Below the pieces are notes generated by a model. That model was not told the origin of the DNA, searched no databases, and saw nothing but the letters and a program-made list of their open reading frames with translations. The translations under genes were made by a program, and so were the position numbers. Positions 44,098-54,994 of a stretch of 64,000 bases of DNA are shown here, piece by piece (the stretch's first letter is position 1; every line of letters starts with the position of its first letter). The DNA is from Centroscyllium fabricii (Eukaryota): contig JBNRSN020000002.1 in assembly GCA_051313645.2 (NCBI GenBank), positions 348,874,001 to 348,938,000 on the forward strand, written 5' to 3'.

Positions 44098-45141
44098 CTA
44101 CAGTTCTTGCACATCTCTGTAATTTCCCTGCAAATTTGCTCCTCTTAACCTTCCCACTAGTTGGTGGCCTATAGAATACACCTAGTACCACCTCTATTGT
44201 TTCTTAACTCTAACCAAATAGATTCTGCCCTTCAGCCCTCCAGGAGATCCTCTCCAGCACTGTAATATTCTCCTTAATCAATACTGTCACTCCACCTCCT
44301 TTCTTTCCTTCCCTATCCTTCCTGAATACCTTGTATCCAGGAATATTTAGTACCCATTCCTGCCGTTTCTGAGCCTGGTCTCAGTTATCGCCACAACATC
44401 ATATTAGCTTATGGCTATTTGTGCCTGCAACTCACTAACCTTGTTCACCACACTTTGTGCGTTTACACACATGCACTGTAAACCTATCTTAGTCTGATCC
44501 CACCTAATACTGTACTATTTCTTATTCTAGTGCTATCCGTCTCTCCCACTCCTTTGTGCACCTTGTTTCTCCTTTCTAATGCTACATCCTGGTGCCCACC
44601 CCCCTGCCAAAGTAGTTTAAATAAATGCAAGAACACATGACTTTTTATATTCCATTCAAACCTTGAAGCCAATTTCATCTGAAAACCATGGACAAGTTGC
44701 CTGGTCACAAGCTCTACTCTTCTGATTTAGCCTTCTCAGGGAGATGAATAACCACAAGTGGAACTTCCAAAACGATAAAGCTTTGCCAAGTTTCTCCCTG
44801 ACCCTAAATGTAGTCCAACAAAACTCCAGAAAATCCGTTCAACATTATAACCTATATTATTCAACTCCAACCAGCTGATGAGTACAAGTAACATTTCCAT
44901 GGCCCAAGCGGCAGTGCAGCGACTGCTCTTTGTACAGTATTCGTCATTTAGTGCTGCAGTGATTACCTTCAGACATATTCAGAGCTAAATCAGAATAGAA
45001 TTTATTTATGTTGATCTATTTATTTCACCATCTACTGCTCTGTGGGTATAAAAACATATTGGCCTGAATCCTCAGAGAGGCTCCCTTTCCACCACCACCG
45101 GAACTTCACCGGAAATGCAGCAGAAACCCTGATAACGCACG

Positions 45142-45414
45142 TGACGTAACGTCAATTGGTCTTAATAAAAGACTGGACGAGTAGCTACCGTAACTAAAGG
45201 CTTTTATTAACTTACTATGGAGCTACCCTCCGAACGAACATCAGAACAGAATGAGGGAGCCTTGGTCAGTCCTCACCTATAAAGGCCTCACCTGGGGGAG
45301 GAGTTAGAGGTGTGGCTGACCTGGCTCCACGACAGTATTACAGGGCTGTGTATCACACACAGCCAATTGTTGGCGACAATAATAGTGGTAATATATACAA
45401 TATGGGTTACCACA
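45142..45414 (-). repeat. 3' LTR
   Basis: Direct repeat of 49669-49941; I count 3 substitutions. Confidence 0.95.
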
Positions 45415-45434
45415 TTCACCCCTTCTTGAAAATT

Positions 45435-48400
45435 TTAAGTCCGGCAGGGTGAATGGACAGAGCAGTTCAATATGAGCCTGTCCGGCGGTCGTGTCAGCCT
45501 GGAGGACCGCCGGGGCTCCGATAAAAGTTCCTCGTGTTCCGTCTTGCTCGAGTCCGGTGGTGATGACAGCGGCTCTGGTGCCGTGATTTCAGATGCTGGT
45601 GGTCTCAAATGGTCCGAGCCATCAGAATGGTGGTCTTGGGCTGGCCACGGCTGGGGCTCTGGAAACCTCGGAGGCCATCGTAGATGTAGAAGGTGTTCTG
45701 GATACTGTGGCTGGGCGGGCTGCTGCCCGACCAGGGGCTCTGCTGCGGTGCTTCCTGCGGGCGCCAGGTCCCTGATGGATACGGTGTCCTCACGCCCTTC
45801 CGGGAACTGTACGTATGCATATTGCGGGTTCGCATGCAGGAGCTGCACCTTGTCCACCAGGGGGTCGGTCTTGTGGCCACGGACGTGTCTCCTAAGGAAG
45901 ACCGGCCCTGGTGTCGTGAGCCATGGAGGAAGAGCTGTCCCCGAAGTCGACTTCCTGGGGAACGAAAAAATCAAGTCATGAGGGGTGGCGTTAGTGGCCG
46001 TACACAGGAGAGAGCGTATAGAATGCAGCGCGTCTGGGAGGACTGCCTGCCAATGGGCCACTGGAAGGCCTCTGGACTTCAGAGCCAGGGTGACCGCCTT
46101 CCAGATGATCCCATTCTCCCTGGCCTTTCCCCCGGGGGTTATAACTGGTCGTTCTGCTCGTGGCAACCCCTTTCTGGAGCAGAAACTGACGCAGTTCATC
46201 GCTCATGAACGATGCCCCCCGGTCGCTATGGATGTAGCTGGGGAGACCGAAAATGGCGAACAGCGTGGTGAAGTGTTTTATCACCGTTGCGCTTGTCATA
46301 TCTGCGCAGGGGAAGGCGAAGGGGAAGCGGGAGAACTCATCTACGACCGTGAGGAAGTATGAGTTGCGGTCGGTGGTGGGGAGGGGGCCTTTGAAGTCCA
46401 CGCTGAGACGTTCAAAGGGGCGGGTGGCCTTGATGAGGTGCACAGTGTCTGGCCGGAAAAATTGGGGTTTGCACTCGGCGCAAACAGGGCACTCTCGGGT
46501 CATAGCCTTGATCTCCGTGATGGAGTAGGGGAGGCTACGGGATCTAACGAAGTGGGCGAGTCTGGTGACACCCGGGTGGCAAAGGTGGTCGTGGAGGTCC
46601 TTCAGCCGGTCTAGCTGGGCACTGGCGCACGTTCCCCTGGACAGTGCGTCCGGGGGTTCATCGAGTTTACCTGGTCGGTAAAGAATGTCGTACTCGTAAG
46701 TCGAGAGTTCGATCCGCCACCGCAGGATCTTATCATTCTTGATCTTACCCTTCTGTTTATTATTAAACAAACGCCACCGACCGCTGGTCGGTGAGAAGGG
46801 TAAAACGCTTACCGGCCAGGTAATGACGCCAGTAGCGCACGGCCTCCACGATGGCCTGGGCCTCCTTTTCCACTGCAGAGTGGCGAGTTTCGGGTCCCTG
46901 TAGGGTGCGGGAGAAAAACGCTACGGGCCTGCCTGCCTGATTCAGGGTGGCAGCAAGGGCAAAGTCCGAAGCGTCGCTCTCCACCTGGAAGGGAATGGAT
47001 TCATCAACAGCGAGCATGGTCGCCTTGATGATGTCTTCCTTTATCCGGGCGAATGCCGTTTGTGCTTCTACCGAAAGGGGGAAGACGGCAGCCTTGAGGA
47101 GTGGTCTAGCCTTGTCCGCGAACTGTGGGACCCATTGTGCGTAGTAGGAGAAAAATCCTAAGCATCTCAAGGCTTTGGGGTTGTGAGGTAGGGGCAGTTC
47201 TTGAAGGGGGCGCATAAGCTGTGGGTCGGGGCCGAGGACCCCGTTCTCCACCACGTATCCGAGGATGGCGAGCCGGTCTGTATTAAAGACACATTTGTCT
47301 TTGTTATACGTGAGGTCCAGCTTATCCGCCGTGTCAAGGAATTTGGCCAGATTGGCATCGTGGTCCTGCTGGTCGCGGCCGCAGATGGTCACGTTGTCCA
47401 GGTAAGGGAAAGTGGCCCGCAACTCGTTCTGGTCAACCATGCGGTCCATCTCCCGTTGGAACACTGACACTCCGTTGGTCACGCCGAAGGGGACCCGCAG
47501 GAAGTGGTAGAGCCGACCGTTTGCCTCGAAGGCGGTGTACGGGCGGTCGGCTTTCCGGATCGGGAGTTGGTGATACGCCGACTTAAGGTCGATCGTGGAG
47601 AACACCTTATATTGGGCGATCTGATTAACCATTTCCGAGATGCGGGGGAGGGGGTAGGCATCGAGCCCGGTGTAGCGGTTGATAGTCTGGCTGTAATCGA
47701 TAACCAGCCGCTGTTTCTCGCTAGACTTCACCAATACTACCTGGGCCCGCCAGGGGCTGGTGCTGGCTTCAATTATCCCCTCCTTCAGCATACGCCCGAC
47801 CTCCGACCTGATAAACGTGCGATCCCCCACACTGTACCGCCGACTCTTTGTAGCAATAGGTTTGCACTTGGGGTCGAGGTTGGTGAACAGTGAGGGGGGG
47901 TCGATTTTCAGGGTGGAGAGGCCGCAGGCTGGGCTCCGCTTTGGGAAGCGACTGTCCCGGCTACTGACGGTGAGGGGGGGCAAGGTCCCGCCGAACTCCA
48001 TTGTCACGCTCTTGAGGTGGCACTGGAAATCCAGACCTAGTAAGGCTGGGGCACACAACTGCTTGAGGGTGTACAATTTAAAATTACGGTACACGCACAC
48101 CTTGACTGTGAGCGTGACGGAGCAGTAGCCGGTGACGTCCGCGGTGTGGGACTGTGAAGCAAGGGAGACTTGGTAGCTCGTGGGCAGGATCTGCAGTCCG
48201 CAGCGCTGCACTGTATCGGGGTGCACAAAACTCTCCGTGCTTCCAGTGTCAAACAGGCAATCGATAATATGGCCGTTTATTTTAATTGGCATTATCGAAT
48301 TTGACAGGGTGTGTGGCCTATCCTGGTCCACTTTGGGTATGGCTGAGGCCGACGTGTGCTTTTGTGTGTGGGGGCCCCTTGCTGGTTGGGGCTGTACACA

Positions 48401-48517
48401 AAATGGCGGCGCCCCTGGCTCGCACATGGTGGGGCCCTGGGGACAAAATGGCGCCGCCGAGGGGTCGCACATGGCGGGCCGCTGGAGACAAGATGGCGGC
48501 GCCGGGGGGTCGCACAT
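45435..48517 (-). pseudogene. Pol (protease, RT, RNase H, integrase) broken by frameshifts at ~46768 and ~46122
   Basis: LFDTGS protease; PFGVTN and YLDN in RT; ESDASD RNase H; HDHLCH...CPVC, VDFKGP, VDEFSRF and IHSDRG in integrase, spread over ORFs 46763-48517, 45991-46770 and 45435-46199. Confidence 0.9.
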
Positions 48518-49643
48518 GGTGGGCCGCTGAAGGCGCCCGTGGTTCGCACGCGGCTGACCGCTGTGAGCGCGCTGGCGGCGCCCGTGGTTCGCACACAGCG
48601 GGCCGCGGTGACTGGGTTGGCGGTGCCCGTGGTTCGCACGCAGCGAGCCGCGGTGGTTGGTTTGGCGGTGCCCGTGATTCGCACGCAGCCGGCCGTGTTG
48701 GGTCTGCTGCTGGCGTTGGGGGGTCGCGCTTGGCCGGCCGTTGCCGCATCGGGGTGGGAGATGGGGGCGCTTTCCTTCTACCCCCGGACCGTCGCTGGAT
48801 CGCGCTGCTATTGCAGCTTACCTGAGGTCTGACGGAGTTTTCACAGGCTGCGCTGTTGTACCTGGAGTTGGGCGCTGCTGGTGCTGATCTGCAGGCCTTT
48901 GCATAGTGTCCCTTTTTGGAGCACCTCTCACAGGTCGCGGTCCTTGCTGGGCATCTCGCTCGCGGGTGCAGTCCCTGGCCGCAGAAATAGCACCGTTTGT
49001 CCTTTGCGGGTGTCGCAGCCATCGAGGGGGTCTCGACCCGTTGTGGTGCTGCCCAGGCCTGGGCCCGTTGTGGCGCGGCCCACATGTCGTAGGCCTGCGG
49101 GTTTGTGCCGCTGTACGCCTGCAGTTTATTGCGTGCTCCTTCAACGGAGTTAGCTATGGCGATCGCCTCCTCAAGAGTCAAAGAGTCCTTTTCGAGCAGC
49201 CGCTGGTGGGCTTCCACGCACCTCAGGCCAGTTACATACGCGTCTCGGACGAGGAGGTTCGCCTCCTCTTCTGCTGTCCGGGCTTGGCAGCCACAGACCC
49301 GTACCAGGGCCTGGAGCGCTTGCTCAAACTGTTCATTGGTCTCACCCGGTAGTTGTGGTCTGGTAGCGAGCACATGTCTGGCGTAGACCGAATGGACCGG
49401 GCGCTCGTAGCATTTCCTCAGCTTTTCCACTGCCCCTGGGTAGGTTTTGGCGTCTCGGATGAGGGAGAATACTCGGCTGGAGATCCTAGACCGGAGAACC
49501 TGCAACTTGTTCCCGTCGGTTGTAGCCTTGGCGGCGTCCATGTCGGCCTCCAGGAGACCGAACCAGTGTTCGAACGTGGTGGCGGCGGCTGGGGCCTGTG
49601 GACTGATATCCAGCTTTTCTGGCTTTACCGCACCGCTCTCCAT
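48318..49643 (-). CDS. Gag with two zinc-knuckle motifs (C-terminal end probably a frameshift product)
   Basis: 441-aa ORF with CYFCGQGLHPRARC and CERCSKKGHYAKAC. Confidence 0.85.
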   Translation of the reverse strand: MESGAVKPEKLDISPQAPAAATTFEHWFGLLEADMDAAKATTDGNKLQVLRSRISSRVFSLIRDAKTYPGAVEKLRKCYERPVHSVYARHVLATRPQLPGETNEQFEQALQALVRVCGCQARTAEEEANLLVRDAYVTGLRCVEAHQRLLEKDSLTLEEAIAIANSVEGARNKLQAYSGTNPQAYDMWAAPQRAQAWAAPQRVETPSMAATPAKDKRCYFCGQGLHPRARCPARTATCERCSKKGHYAKACRSAPAAPNSRYNSAACENSVRPQVSCNSSAIQRRSGGRRKAPPSPTPMRQRPAKRDPPTPAADPTRPAACESRAPPNQPPRLAACEPRAPPTQSPRPAVCEPRAPPARSQRSAACEPRAPSAAHHVRPPGAAILSPAARHVRPLGGAILSPGPHHVRARGAAILCTAPTSKGPPHTKAHVGLSHTQSGPG

Positions 49644-49668
49644 TTAAAAAATTTTAAGTTAATAAAAT

Positions 49669-49941
49669 TGACGTAACGTCAATTGGTCTTAATAAAAGAC
49701 TGGACGAGTAGTTACCGTAACTGAAGGCTTTTATTAACTTACTATGGAGCTACCCTCCGAACGAACATCAGAACAGAATGAGGGAGCCTCGGTCAGTCCT
49801 CACCTATAAAGGCCTCACCTGGGGGAGGAGTTAGAGGTGTGGCTGACCTGGCTCCACGACAGTATTACAGGGCTGTGTATCACACACAGCCAATTGTTGG
49901 CGACAATAATAGTGGTAATATATACAATATGGGTTACCACA
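49669..49941 (-). repeat. 5' LTR
   Basis: Direct repeat of 45142-45414; followed by a 25-nt leader and the gag ATG at 49643. Confidence 0.95.
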
Positions 49942-51068
49942 GCACGTAAATCAATTTTCCATTGCACACCCGCTGAAGTTATGGTGTAGAAGTGGGAGCA
50001 GCTCCGAGGAAATTAAGTATTTTATTTTGCACGTGCACGCTACAGCTTCTATCCAATATAAAAGGCAGCTGAAGTTAAATAACTTGCTTCTGTCTACATT
50101 ATTCATTTTAACGACTTGGATATGCTTCCTCCCAGTTATTTTCAATTCAAATTTTTCAATTCAAGTTTTGTCATTGCAGAGTACGAGTACAATACAACGA
50201 AACGAAGACTCGCTGCTCCCGAGAGTAGTGCAAATAAGTTACATATAATTGCATACAGTAAAGTACTTTTCAGGTGTGCAGGTACTGGAGTTTTTTTTTC
50301 CTCAATCAACATTATAATAAACTTGGAGTTAATAAATTTTTCCTCAATCAACATTATAATAAACGTAAGGCCACTATCCCCCCACCCCTCCATACAATAA
50401 AAATACAAGTTAAGTTTCTTTGCTATAAGAAAAACCCATTCTTAGTCAATTCGTACCCCATAAGGGCAGCTGCTACTACTTACATTTTCATCACTCCCAC
50501 CCAGAGGGACACTCTATGCGTTATAAACAATTCTGCTAATGATTACAAGCTTTTCAATTTAAAATTGTGGTCCGTAATACTGGCTGCTTCTTCTGATGCC
50601 ATAGAAACTGTCCCATTTGCATTGTTACGTGCTTTCTACAGCAACTGGATGCACTTTTAACCTTGCATGCATGTTTGGCGCCTCAGTCTGAGCAGCAATC
50701 TTTACATTGCACCACCTGCTGTGAAATTACCAGGCAATATAATACAGTACCCAGAACCTGAGCCGGTATTGTTGAACTACCAGCTGGAGTTATTCAGAAA
50801 TATAAATGCACTACTAAAGATAAGCGTTCTTCGACCATAACACATTTCTATCAATCTTTTCCTCAGACGAGCCAGAAGGGCTGAGTAATTATATAGGTCA
50901 AAAGTTCAGCAGGCATTTCCCCAGTAGCGTAATGGATAAAGAGGACAGCAATAAGCCATAAGGAATACCACAGTCAATTCGTAGCCGGTGCCAAGTTAAC
51001 TGGTTTCAGCCAGGGCAGCAGTTCAGTTGTTACAACTGGCCTCAACAAGACTTATTTATCCACATATA

Positions 51069-51786: not shown

Positions 51787-54700
51787 TACTAATGAGTACA
51801 GGAACCGTAAGATAGAGCAGCTTAATTCGTGGCTAAGAGATTGGTGTAGGAGGGAGGGTTTCAGCTTTTTGGACAATTGGTCTTACTTCTGTGGAAGGTG
51901 GAACCTCTACATGCAGGACGGATTGCACCTGAACCAGAAGGGGACCAATATCCTTGCGGGAAGGTTTGCTAGCCGGGTTGGGGTGGGTTTAAACTAATTT
52001 GGCAGGGGGAGGGGACCCAGATGGAAGGTATAATGGATAGGGGAACACAACCTAATAAAGGAAAGCAGACTAGACAGCAAAACAAGGTAGTTTTAGGACA
52101 GAGAATGAAAGGCATATACTTTAACGCAAGGAGCCTGACTAACAAAGTGGATGAGTTAAAGGTATTGGTTGACTCATGGGAATATGATATAGTAGCTATC
52201 ACGGAGACGTGGCTGAAAGAGGGGCAAGAATGGCAGCTAAACATTCCGGGGTATAGAATTTTCAGGCGGGACAGGGACAAGGGTAAAAGGGGAGGGGGGG
52301 TAGCGATACTGATTAAGGATTCAATCACAGCCATTAGGCGGGTCGACCTAATGGACGAATCCTCAAACGAGGCACTATGGGTGGAGGTAAAAAATAAAAA
52401 AGGGGGGGGCACCTTACTGGGAGTATATTATAGACCACCAAACAGTAAAGGGGAGGTAGAGGATAAGATATGTGAACAAATCACGAAGATAAGTGAAAAT
52501 AATAAAGTAACAATACTAGGGGACTTTAATTTCCCCAATATCAACTGGGAGAATCAAAGTGTGCGGGGCACGGATGGTTCAGCATTCTTACAATGCAGCC
52601 AAGATAATTTTTTGAAACAATATGTTGGGTCACCTACAAGGGGGGGGGCGGTACTAGACCTAATACTTGGGAACGAGGACGGGCAGATAGAGGAGGTAAC
52701 AGTGGGGGAGCACTTCGGGGATAGCGACCACAATTCAGTTAGTTTCAAAATTGTAATGGAGAAAGATAAAAATGGACCAGGGGTAAAAATACTAAACTGG
52801 GGGAAGGCGGATTTCAATAAAATTAGGAACGATGTAACCGCAGTAGATTGGGGCCATCTCCTCAGAGGAAGATCTGCATCAGAGCAGTGGGAGGCCTTCA
52901 GAGGGGAAGTCGGGAAGATACAGGAGGAACATGTTCCTGCAAAAATTAAGGGTGGGGGAGACAAACAAAGGGAACCTTGGATGTCTAGGGATATATGTAA
53001 ATTAATGAAGAAAAAAAGGGGGGCTTTTAATGAATATAAACGGCTAAAAACTGAGGAGGCACTAGGGGAGTATAAGAAATATAGGGGGGATTTAAAGAAG
53101 GAGATAAGAAAAGCCAAGAGAGGTCATGAGATTACAATGGCCGGTAAAATCAAGGATAACCCTAAGGCATTTTATAGTTATATAAAAAACAAAAGGATCA
53201 CGAGGGAAAGGGTGGGGCCCATTAAAGACGATAGCGGAAAGCTGTGCGTCGAGCCCGAGGAGGTGGGGGAGGTACTAAATGAATTCTTCTCTTCAGTATT
53301 CACAAGAGAGAGGGACGATACCGACATCGAAATCGGACAGAATGTAGGGGGGGTAATTGAGGATATTACCATTACAAGGGAAGAAGTTCTAGAAATCTTG
53401 GGAGGCTTAAAGGTGGACAAATCACCAGGGCCGGACGCAATGTTCCCCAGGCTGCTGTTCGAGGCCAGGGAGGAGCTTGCGGGTCCCCTGTCTCAAATCT
53501 TCAGGACCTCTCTCGCGTCAGGGGATGTACCTGAGGACTGGAGAACGGCTAATGTAGTACCCCTGTTTAAAAAGGGTAGTAGGGACAAACCGGGCAACTA
53601 CAGGCCAATCAGTCTTACATCTGTAGTGGGGAAAGTAATGGAAAAAATTCTGAGGGATAAAATCAGTTCGCATTTGGACAACCAAGGTCTAATAAGAGAC
53701 AGTCAGCATGGCTTCGTCAAAGGTAAGTCGTGCCTGACCAATCTGTTGGAATTCTTTGAGGAGGTAACAAAGAGGGTGGATGAAGGGAGTACTGTGGACG
53801 TAGTGTATATGGACTTTAGCAAAGCTTTTGATAAAGTCCCACATAGGAGACTAATAACAAAGGTTAGAGCGCACGGGATACAGGGTAACTTGGCACAGTG
53901 GATCGAAAATTGGCTGGGGGATAGGAGACAAAGGGTAATGGTAGAGGGCTGCTTCTGTGACTGGAAACCAGTAACCAGTGGCGTCCCCCAAGGATCGGTT
54001 TTGGGACCCTTACTGTTTCTAGTATACATCAACGATTTGGATATGGGAGTAGGGGGTACGATCAGCAAATTCGCTGATGATACGAAAATCGGAAGGGTGG
54101 TAAACAACGATGAGGATAGTAAGGGGCTTCAGGAGGATATAGATATAATGGTTAATTGGGCAGAAAAATGGCAAATGGAGTTCAACCCAGAGAAATGCGA
54201 GGTCATACAATTCGGTAGACCAAATGGGGTAAGGGAATATACCATGAACAACAAAACGTTAAATAGGACCGAGGAACAGAGGGACCTGGGGGTACAGGTG
54301 CACAGCTCCCTGAAGGTTGCTGGACACGTTAACAAGGTAGTTAAGAAGGCATACGGAATTCTCGCCTTTATTAACCAGGGCATAGTATACAAAAGTAGGG
54401 AGGTAATGTTAAACTTGTATAACACACTGGTGAGACCTCAGCTGGAGTACTGTGTGCAGTTCTGGTCACCGCACTACAGGAAGGATGTGGCTGCCCTGGA
54501 GAGGGTGCAGAGAAGGTTTACCAGGATGATACCTGGTCTGGGGGACCTGTGCTACGAGGAAAGGCTGGACAGGCTGGGGTTGTTTGCCTTGGAGAAGAGA
54601 AGGTGGAGGGGTGACATGATTGAGGTGTACAAGATCATGAGGGGACACGATAGGGTAGACAAAGGTGCATTGTTTCCCCTGGTGGGAGAGTCAAGCACTA

Positions 54701-54994
54701 GGGGACATAGATTCAAGATCAGGGGGGGGAGGTTTAGGGGGGAGGTAAGGAGAAATTTCTTTACCCAGAGGGTGGTGGAAGACTGGAACTCCCTGCCTGT
54801 GAGGGTGGTGGAGGCAGGAACCATCACAACATTTAAAAAATACTTGGACCAGCACATGAAGGACCATAACATACAGGGTTATGGGCCAGGTGCGGGCAAC
54901 TGGGGTTAGTACAGTGAGGAGTTTTTCTGGGCCGGTGCGGACTGGATGGGCCGAATGGCCCTTATCCGCACTGTAAAATTTCTATGATTCTATG
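51787..54994 (+). mobile_element. Young 5'-truncated CR1 LINE (end of ORF1, intact ORF2, (ATTCTATG)n tail)
   Basis: ATTAG duplicated at 51782-51786 and 54995-54999; ORF1 end DGLHLN...GLN*; canonical CR1 8-nt tail. Confidence 0.92.
52021..54909 (+). CDS. CR1 ORF2: APE endonuclease plus reverse transcriptase, uninterrupted 962 aa
   Basis: FNARSL, ITETWL, GDFN, SDH (endonuclease); DFSKAFDKV, QGSVLGP, FADD (RT). Confidence 0.95.
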   Translation: MEGIMDRGTQPNKGKQTRQQNKVVLGQRMKGIYFNARSLTNKVDELKVLVDSWEYDIVAITETWLKEGQEWQLNIPGYRIFRRDRDKGKRGGGVAILIKDSITAIRRVDLMDESSNEALWVEVKNKKGGGTLLGVYYRPPNSKGEVEDKICEQITKISENNKVTILGDFNFPNINWENQSVRGTDGSAFLQCSQDNFLKQYVGSPTRGGAVLDLILGNEDGQIEEVTVGEHFGDSDHNSVSFKIVMEKDKNGPGVKILNWGKADFNKIRNDVTAVDWGHLLRGRSASEQWEAFRGEVGKIQEEHVPAKIKGGGDKQREPWMSRDICKLMKKKRGAFNEYKRLKTEEALGEYKKYRGDLKKEIRKAKRGHEITMAGKIKDNPKAFYSYIKNKRITRERVGPIKDDSGKLCVEPEEVGEVLNEFFSSVFTRERDDTDIEIGQNVGGVIEDITITREEVLEILGGLKVDKSPGPDAMFPRLLFEAREELAGPLSQIFRTSLASGDVPEDWRTANVVPLFKKGSRDKPGNYRPISLTSVVGKVMEKILRDKISSHLDNQGLIRDSQHGFVKGKSCLTNLLEFFEEVTKRVDEGSTVDVVYMDFSKAFDKVPHRRLITKVRAHGIQGNLAQWIENWLGDRRQRVMVEGCFCDWKPVTSGVPQGSVLGPLLFLVYINDLDMGVGGTISKFADDTKIGRVVNNDEDSKGLQEDIDIMVNWAEKWQMEFNPEKCEVIQFGRPNGVREYTMNNKTLNRTEEQRDLGVQVHSSLKVAGHVNKVVKKAYGILAFINQGIVYKSREVMLNLYNTLVRPQLEYCVQFWSPHYRKDVAALERVQRRFTRMIPGLGDLCYEERLDRLGLFALEKRRWRGDMIEVYKIMRGHDRVDKGALFPLVGESSTRGHRFKIRGGRFRGEVRRNFFTQRVVEDWNSLPVRVVEAGTITTFKKYLDQHMKDHNIQGYGPGAGNWG

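Follow-up and report, generated by a model that had tools for sequence, protein, structure and literature searches.

A putative self-derived primer in an abundant chromodomain-less Ty3/Gypsy clade of Centroscyllium fabricii

Introduction

To our knowledge, self-primed reverse transcription has been proven only for the Tf1 retrotransposon, and elsewhere it has been predicted from complementarity. The Tf1 primer is the first 11 nt of the element RNA, freed by RNase H (PMC7175516; bioRxiv 2022.12.06.519325), and in ca. 50% of Tf1 cDNA the primer site persists as a single-stranded copy that is able to direct insertion by homology (PMC11042837; this and the other publications are cited here from those portions of their text that were available to us). 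Since Tf1 cDNA retains this copy, copying of a primer is established chemistry. Self-priming has also been predicted for plant elements, namely Tcn1 (Gypsy) and TAR/Houba/Osr-1 (Copia), which carry a complement of at least 10 nt situated 0-5 nt after the 5' LTR, so self-priming appears to have arisen more than once (PMC6317226). In the available portions of that paper, neither a long primer nor a link to the poly(A) hexamer is reported, and fossil primer copies are not described either. For bivalve TRIMs, self-priming was raised as an open possibility (PMC6934838).

The non-chromodomain Gypsy elements of metazoans, among them Mag A/B/C, Cigr-1, CsRN1 and MolGy1-16, have a wide range of animal hosts (PMC6238403, PMC8556966), and primer sites go unmentioned for these clades in the main texts of the two papers (0 matches to PBS or primer). 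In the literature searched, which comprised few subscription journals and no Repbase reports, the available portions mention self-priming only for Tf1/sushi, Tcn1, TAR/Houba/Osr-1 and, possibly, bivalve TRIMs.

Here, we analyze an element of Centroscyllium fabricii that, like Tf1 and Tf2 of Schizosaccharomyces pombe, Tj1, and Tf1/sushi elements, belongs to Ty3/Gypsy, lacks a tRNA site, and carries a complement of its own R segment directly after the 5' LTR (PMC7175516, PMC4600332).

Results

Anatomy of the element

The window, i.e., the whole stretch of 64,000 nt that was analyzed (contig JBNRSN020000002.1, positions 348,874,001 to 348,938,000), contains on its minus strand a 4.8-kb Ty3/Gypsy LTR retrotransposon with the following parts, the ends and repeats being read from the sequence:

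49942..49946, minus strand: upstream copy of the 5-bp target-site duplication, CGTGC
49669..49941, minus strand: 5' LTR, 273 nt, TG...CA ends
49644..49668, minus strand: leader, 25 nt, without TGG; ATG at 49643
48318..49643, minus strand: Gag frame with two CCHC knuckles (residues 218 and 238)
46763..48817, minus strand: protease, reverse transcriptase (YLDN) and RNase H frame
45435..46920, minus strand: integrase region, two frames, no chromodomain match
45415..45427, minus strand: polypurine tract (PPT), immediately 5' of the 3' LTR
45142..45414, minus strand: 3' LTR, 273 nt, 3 differences from the 5' LTR
45137..45141, minus strand: downstream copy of the 5-bp target-site duplication, CGTGC

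The TG...CA LTRs, the short target duplication and the PPT are features of Ty3/Gypsy membership; the domain order (protease, reverse transcriptase, RNase H, integrase) is that of Gypsy, and the reverse transcriptase (RT) is nearest to Ty3 among solved structures. Judged by the three differences between its LTRs, the insertion is young. The coding region of the window copy is broken and spread over four frames, and other copies of the family have one long frame. Three acidic motifs of RNase H are present. A scan of the four frames (E<=0.1) did not find a chromodomain. The two-knuckle Gag, the YLDN motif and the missing chromodomain had all been listed in the preliminary description of this locus, as had the 25-nt leader that is followed by ATG and lacks a TGG site, and the sequence agrees on each of these points.

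Seven imperfect 45-nt repeats were observed at window positions 48408-48756, between the Gag knuckles and the protease; this insert makes the polyprotein longer (ca. 1,400 aa, versus ca. 1,200 aa in invertebrate relatives). Elsewhere in the window, positions 51973-54909 hold a 978-aa open frame of a LINE-type element, with endonuclease and RT motifs recognized by eye, and several broken LINE-type copies adjoin it.

A duplex between leader and LTR

The following features surround the 5' end of the element:

49655..49667, minus strand: predicted primer-binding site, 13 nt, one A (49668) past the LTR end; complement of the element's own R segment
49729..49741, minus strand: LTR arm of the duplex, 13 nt, exact reverse complement of 49667-49655
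49730..49735, minus strand: AATAAA within the duplex arm; the 3' LTR copy is at 45208-45203
49689..49698, minus strand: second complement of the hexamer region, 10 nt, in U5; present in both LTRs
49666..49684, minus strand: hairpin of 8 bp at the U5 end, adjoining the primer site; 6 bp in the predicted fold

No TGG-type tRNA site was found in the leader, and the window is without a tRNA gene. The perfect 13-nt complement, including AATAAA and beginning one A past the LTR end, is exactly as first described. The second, 10-nt complement in U5 (49698-49689) had been overlooked; it is found in some subfamilies only, without a counterpart in others, and may be a competing fold or a downstream poly(A) element. 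At loci L146, L151, L161, L190 and L196, it was observed to track the type of the hexamer (AATAAA or ATTAAA).

The fold of the window copy was no better than that of shuffled sequence (z -0.91; 28 of 200 shuffles were as good). Thus, one AT-rich copy is weak proof, and the case rests on comparison. Folding predicts that the 5' duplex is local and forms with a probability of ca. 0.9, and it places the U5-end hairpin beside the duplex, a prediction that may be compared with the 'pretzel' three-duplex fold of Tf1/sushi.

Covariation across relatives

To sample the genome, 80 evenly spaced 10-kb stretches were taken, which yielded 43 gag starts; 37 were anchored and 6 were dropped (four at 23-27% identity, taken as other clades, one with a hexamer deletion, and one without a recognizable LTR end). 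Perfect pairing over at least 12 nt was found in 33 of the 37 randomly sampled relatives. Across all 37, Watson-Crick pairs occupied 472 of 481 cells, G·U pairs none, and 22 distinct 13-mers were present, each tied to its own LTR; therefore, no single tRNA can match the leaders. When the 38 distinct pairs were scored by position, pairing was seen in 34-38 of them at positions 1-13, and dropped to 16 of 38 at position 14. A leader paired with its own partner at 8.39 of the nine variable positions (5-13), compared to 5.35 for shuffled partners (maximum 6.05 in 5000 shuffles), with three mis-anchored rows (L068, L070, L096) included; the G·U cells in this set come from the mis-anchored rows only, and these do pair when read at the right place, with one mismatch in L068. 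In a 15-sequence alignment, 7 of 13 pairs had changed on both sides and none on one side only, and 0 of 500 shuffles scored as high; such counts of two-sided change are inflated by relatedness, and slid controls collapse.

Among 82 loci from metagenomes and viral contigs, 54 with enough flank were examined (28 were left out), and 36 of the 54 were without an LTR pair. The duplex was present in 17 of the 18 metagenome elements with a readable LTR pair, being perfect over 13-17 nt in 12 and having 1-3 mismatches in 5; seven elements of this set come from one assembly, and two are near-identical. Viral contigs yielded two distant loci only. A different LTR pair without the duplex was seen beside a Pol fragment of the clade (L098:3239-3470), and possibly belongs to a nested element.

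The last bases of the duplex are ...TAAA(A), and in nearly all cases the next three are GCC, GCT or ACC. Of the 38 distinct pairs, 32 carry AATAAA or ATTAAA as the hexamer and 5 carry GTTAAA or TTTAAA. The duplex loop in the clade measures 37-65 nt (17 nt in one case). We conclude that the 13-nt leader/LTR complement is clade-wide, and that the 13-bp Watson-Crick match between R and the leader is kept across families despite different letters. The two segments co-vary, as the preliminary description had proposed to check, and the complementarity has been retained, not lost, in related families of the genome and of the metagenomes.

Predicted RNA start and primer geometry

Upstream of the duplex arm, the 5' LTR contains motifs that suggest where the RNA may begin:

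49805..49810, minus strand: TATA-like box, 29 nt upstream of the predicted start; motif only
49776..49781, minus strand: initiator-like TCATTC; the A at 49779 is the predicted +1, where fossil primer copies stop; motif
49729..49779, minus strand: putative self-primer, ca. 51 nt, from +1 to the end of the A run; from junctions and motifs, 3' end +/- one base

The initiator motif is described as TCAKTY (PMC3601003). In most relatives, 50-53 nt separate an initiator A from the duplex end downstream, and in many a TATA-type motif is found 82-86 nt upstream of that end. By these motifs, the paired segment begins ca. 38 nt downstream of the predicted start. The geometry had been equated with that of Tf1/sushi elements, an equation that does not hold if the start is as predicted, as Tf1 is primed by the first 11 nt of its RNA. 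A start 38 nt upstream of the pairing means that the self-primer, if used, has a long 5' tail; were such a primer over-copied by plus-strand DNA, the expected product would be a junction that reads U5, A, leader, and the reverse complement of upstream R.

A search for LTR-LTR junctions gave 239 matches; among the 100 listed, the spacers were mixed, which leaves a margin of one base at the 3' end of the putative primer. Many of the tandem LTR junctions among the matches listed have no spacer, and in a recurring class the spacer is the 3' part of the PPT. The PPT-derived spacers suggest that copies of the PPT primer stay at the DNA end, as in Tf1.

Fossil junctions in the genome

The predicted over-copy junction of the window family was found in 14 exact matches (control, 0), and a wider pattern returned 713 matches (control, 0). 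Ordinary clade leaders number at least 92,681 in the 7.2-Gb genome, counted with a pattern that is comparable but not identical. We read 104 junctions, i.e., the 14 exact matches and the first 90 of the wider listing, found with a search pattern that is blind to tails shorter than ca. 22-28 nt. Of these, 13 end at the initiator A, 4 end one base further, and 26 end at positions -25 to -3, which places 43 ends within the predicted R. One junction ends at +4, and the one found at +2 is a long copy that has suffered an internal deletion. The long junctions behave differently: 54 reach the LTR start (9 continue into the PPT and the internal region), and 2 stop just short of it. Between the initiator region and the LTR start, only 3 ends were found in 130 nt.

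Not all 13 ends at position 0 arose independently, since 11 of them use two acceptor sites in gag. When shared acceptors were merged, 34 ends remained in 27 nt versus 3 in 130 nt (p 5e-23), and 8 of the 34, at 8 distinct acceptors, lay at 0 or +1 (p 0.003), the windows for both statistics having been chosen after the ends were seen. The copies that share acceptors differ mutually in the inverted segment, and 10 of 11 match their own LTR with 0-2 mismatches; the eleventh has lost the matching part of its LTR. The sequence of ordinary gag at the two recurrent acceptors is GAAC and GGAT. Ordinary gag thus does not have the last base of the junction, which must come from the copied segment, and the end is not an artefact of microhomology.

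Among the 44 short junctions, 39 follow an LTR in the 5' position, as is expected of a misdirected second strand transfer, 1 follows the PPT, and 4 are without the LTR start. The long palindromes are flanked by a 5-bp duplication at both ends in 21 of 42 cases checked, and are often partly deleted (33 of 60 lack the LTR start). With 56 of 104 junctions running deep into U3, for which the 5' RNA fragment alone offers no template, a second step (fold-back or re-annealing) or another source of primer is required.

Palindromic mini-elements, in which an LTR and a single A are followed by the LTR portion between its start and the hexamer in reverse complement, were observed at L176, L175, L164, L168, L238, L247, L250 and other loci. 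They resemble inverted-repeat DNA elements, and their origin is an LTR retrotransposon. As a separate observation, stretches of ca. 1.3 kb upstream of 5' LTRs (flanks of L002-L060) contained 13 clade LTRs in 66 kb, 9 of them in the opposite orientation, versus ca. 7 expected, which is a weak hint that clade insertions cluster near 5' LTRs.

A second family group and the chromodomain control

In a second family group, 136 junction matches were obtained (control, 1), of which 30 were read and 3 proved to be ordinary leaders. Of the remaining 27 junctions, 5 end at the initiator (4 of these at a different motif, TCAGTC), 5 end inside R, 3 end past the initiator but short of the TATA region, and 14 extend beyond TATA. 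The second group thus shows the same peak with a softer edge, and partly repeats the first result.

Chromodomain elements (sushi-type, YMDD) are abundant in the same genome (e.g., loci L354-L358, L360, L364 and L366). They carry an 11-nt self-complement ca. 29 nt after TATA, which varies in step with the primer site; the arms are ca. 400 nt apart, with a loop of 410-460 nt. A control search gave 5 junction matches against a background of at least 5,683 ordinary leaders, and comprised one true fold-back to the LTR start and four variants of the leader; its patterns covered three chromodomain families only and were not matched to the test pattern, and the comparison is confounded by the longer loop. 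Short over-copies are not expected from a primer that has no tail, and the chromodomain control was as predicted, within the limit set by the loop. Elements of the same genome that have a TGG site, which we take to be CsRN1-like from the start of their LTR and their primer-binding site, differ from the window element in having no self-complement above 8 nt and form a group apart.

The poly(A) signal

In HIV-1, AAUAAA is held in a stem of the 5' LTR, the poly(A) hairpin, and a tRNA serves as the primer. The present element is like HIV-1 in having AAUAAA in a 5' LTR stem, and unlike it in that the partner strand is the primer site itself. Folding predicts pairing of the hexamer at 0.56-0.98 per base in the 5' LTR versus 0.02-0.5 in the 3' LTR. 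A search for poly(A) fossils led to 8 distinct places, 6 of which were unrelated to the element and 2 of which were usable retrocopies of relatives, one (L378) ending 15-17 nt and the other (L373) 10-12 nt past the duplex end. The two polyadenylated retrocopies show that the hexamer is used, and a cut after it would leave 10-17 nt of R to be used in the first strand transfer.

The duplex nevertheless persists in relatives whose paired hexamer is non-canonical: 5 of 38 pairs have GTTAAA or TTTAAA, and at locus L063 the duplex hexamer is non-canonical while AATAAA lies outside the duplex. Occlusion of the poly(A) signal is therefore not the general purpose of the pairing. The occlusion switch that had been suggested for this locus survives as a folding prediction, but not as an explanation for the whole clade. 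As an added benefit beside priming, hiding of the 5' signal is possible on the folding model, if somewhat doubtful.

Clade placement and hosts

Among named proteins, the nearest belong to sharks and rays, and relatives that are 46-62% identical occur in corals, a mussel, a sea cucumber, a tunicate, nematodes and arthropods. The chromodomain profile PF00385 was found in 0 of 120 long relatives, and is present in other elements of the same genome. Two CCHC knuckles are a trait of Mag-type Gag that the window Gag shares. The clade may carry an already published name, for which Cigr-1 (one ORF, short LTRs) is presumably a lead.

In an unrooted RT tree of 72 rows (of 135, after thinning at 88%), which contains none of the named references Tf1, sushi, Mag and Cigr-1, the window element falls in a 63-row clade (100/100) that is separate from the genome's chromodomain elements, from TGG-type elements and from the other Gypsy elements. 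When the clade was constrained to stand beside the chromodomain elements, p-AU was 0.22, and the sister position was not rejected. Of the proposal that the element represents an independent self-priming lineage unlike Tf1/sushi, the absence of a chromodomain, the separate RT clade, and self-priming outside the sampled Tf1/sushi elements (by covariation and junctions) hold; independence, with a sister position left unrejected, does not follow.

Discussion

The element most likely works like Tf1, but fails two defining features of Tf1/sushi, the chromodomain and a primer made of the first ca. 11 nt. It is like Tf1 in that a copy of the primer would be kept at the cDNA end (PMC11042837), which is inferred here from genomic junctions. 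Unlike in Tf1, the 13 paired nucleotides would lie at the 3' end of a putative 51-nt fragment that ends at the poly(A) hexamer. Further differences from Tf1/sushi are the loop, which spans 37-65 nt (one 17 nt) whereas chromodomain elements of this genome have loops of 410-460 nt, the lack of a chromodomain, and an RT that stands apart from theirs.

We propose that a 5'-terminal RNA fragment of ca. 51 nt, ending at AAUAAA, probably primes minus-strand synthesis and is occasionally over-copied. Judging from motifs and fossil stops, the initiator A, 38 nt ahead of the paired segment, would be where transcription starts. The element's RNase H would then, by analogy with Tf1, cut at the duplex end in the conserved context A|RCC, producing a 3' end aimed at U5, and the first strand transfer would rely on the 10-17 nt of R that lie between this cut and the site of polyadenylation. 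Plus-strand strong-stop DNA would copy the primer while it is still joined to the minus strand, a process suggested by its end products. In the usual case, 13 nt of the primer would be copied and the primer site would be rewritten from R, which would produce perfect covariation without G·U pairs. In ca. 1 of 130 copies, the 5' tail of the primer may be copied too, and the DNA would then have joined an internal site by microhomology; alternatively, over-copying may have run through U3, and the palindromic product may have been inserted with duplication of 5 bp. A side benefit could be that the 5' poly(A) signal is hidden.

That some form of self-derived primer is used appears very probable on the sequence evidence; what varies is its form. 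A second cut could trim the self-primer to ca. 13 nt, in which case the long fossils would be strong-stop DNA that annealed to the 5' R of a second RNA and ran to the cap. The same stop at the RNA start would result, the sharp 13-nt limit of the duplex would fit, and the primer would be nearer in length to that of Tf1. The extra cut this requires has left no sign in the sequence, however, and we regard the trimmed primer as unlikely, parsimony alone disfavouring it. It is quite unlikely that the primer comes from the 3' R, through pairing of the RNA ends, a cut in 3' R after the A run, and priming by the long upstream RNA. Such a primer would readily yield the 54 junctions through U3, including the 9 that enter the PPT and the internal region, and the 5-bp duplication in 21 of 42 would be expected if a second, PPT-primed end were made; left unexplained are the 43 ends in R, the 17 at the initiator, and the mere 3 in the next 130 nt, and the 5' duplex is predicted to be local with a probability of ca. 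0.9.

Two readings would remove the primer from the duplex or from the junctions altogether. If the duplex mainly hid the 5' poly(A) signal and the primer were something else, e.g., a tRNA fragment, one would understand why folding predicts a paired hexamer in the 5' LTR and a largely free one in the 3' LTR, why 32 of 38 pairs contain AATAAA or ATTAAA, and why two retrocopies use the hexamer. Hiding as the main function is nevertheless highly improbable. The duplex hexamer is non-canonical in 5 of 38 pairs, and the AATAAA of L063 is not in the duplex at all; G·U pairs, which would be acceptable in a regulatory hairpin, occur in 0 of 481 cells; one tRNA cannot match 22 different leaders; and neither the fixed one-base spacing from the LTR end nor the fossil junctions would be explained. 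The junctions could also be palindromes formed at the DNA level by template switching of replication at the inverted repeat, and hence uninformative on the primer: any 13-bp inverted repeat can fold back, and 33 of 60 long palindromes lack the LTR start. We consider this very improbable, since DNA has no boundary at the initiator A and 21 of 42 long palindromes have the 5-bp duplication at both ends; the 11-bp repeats of chromodomain elements give 1 in 5,683, a control weakened by the ca. 400 nt between their arms.

A broader picture can be put forward tentatively, that of a pan-animal clade with self-priming independent of Tf1/sushi, a capped primer of ca. 51 nt, a duplex that also silences the 5' poly(A) signal, two-U3 palindromes inserted by integrase, and a base-exact fossil map of the start. 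What is new here is the putative long primer, as mapped, and its palindromic by-products. A very abundant animal clade would thus show a different primer design, with copies of the primer held by the genome itself. The fossil junctions turn a prediction of self-priming into a mapped claim about where the primer would start, how long it would be, and where it would end. Searching for over-copied primers would be a general method for other groups in which self-priming is predicted, and may bear on how often retroelements dropped tRNA priming.
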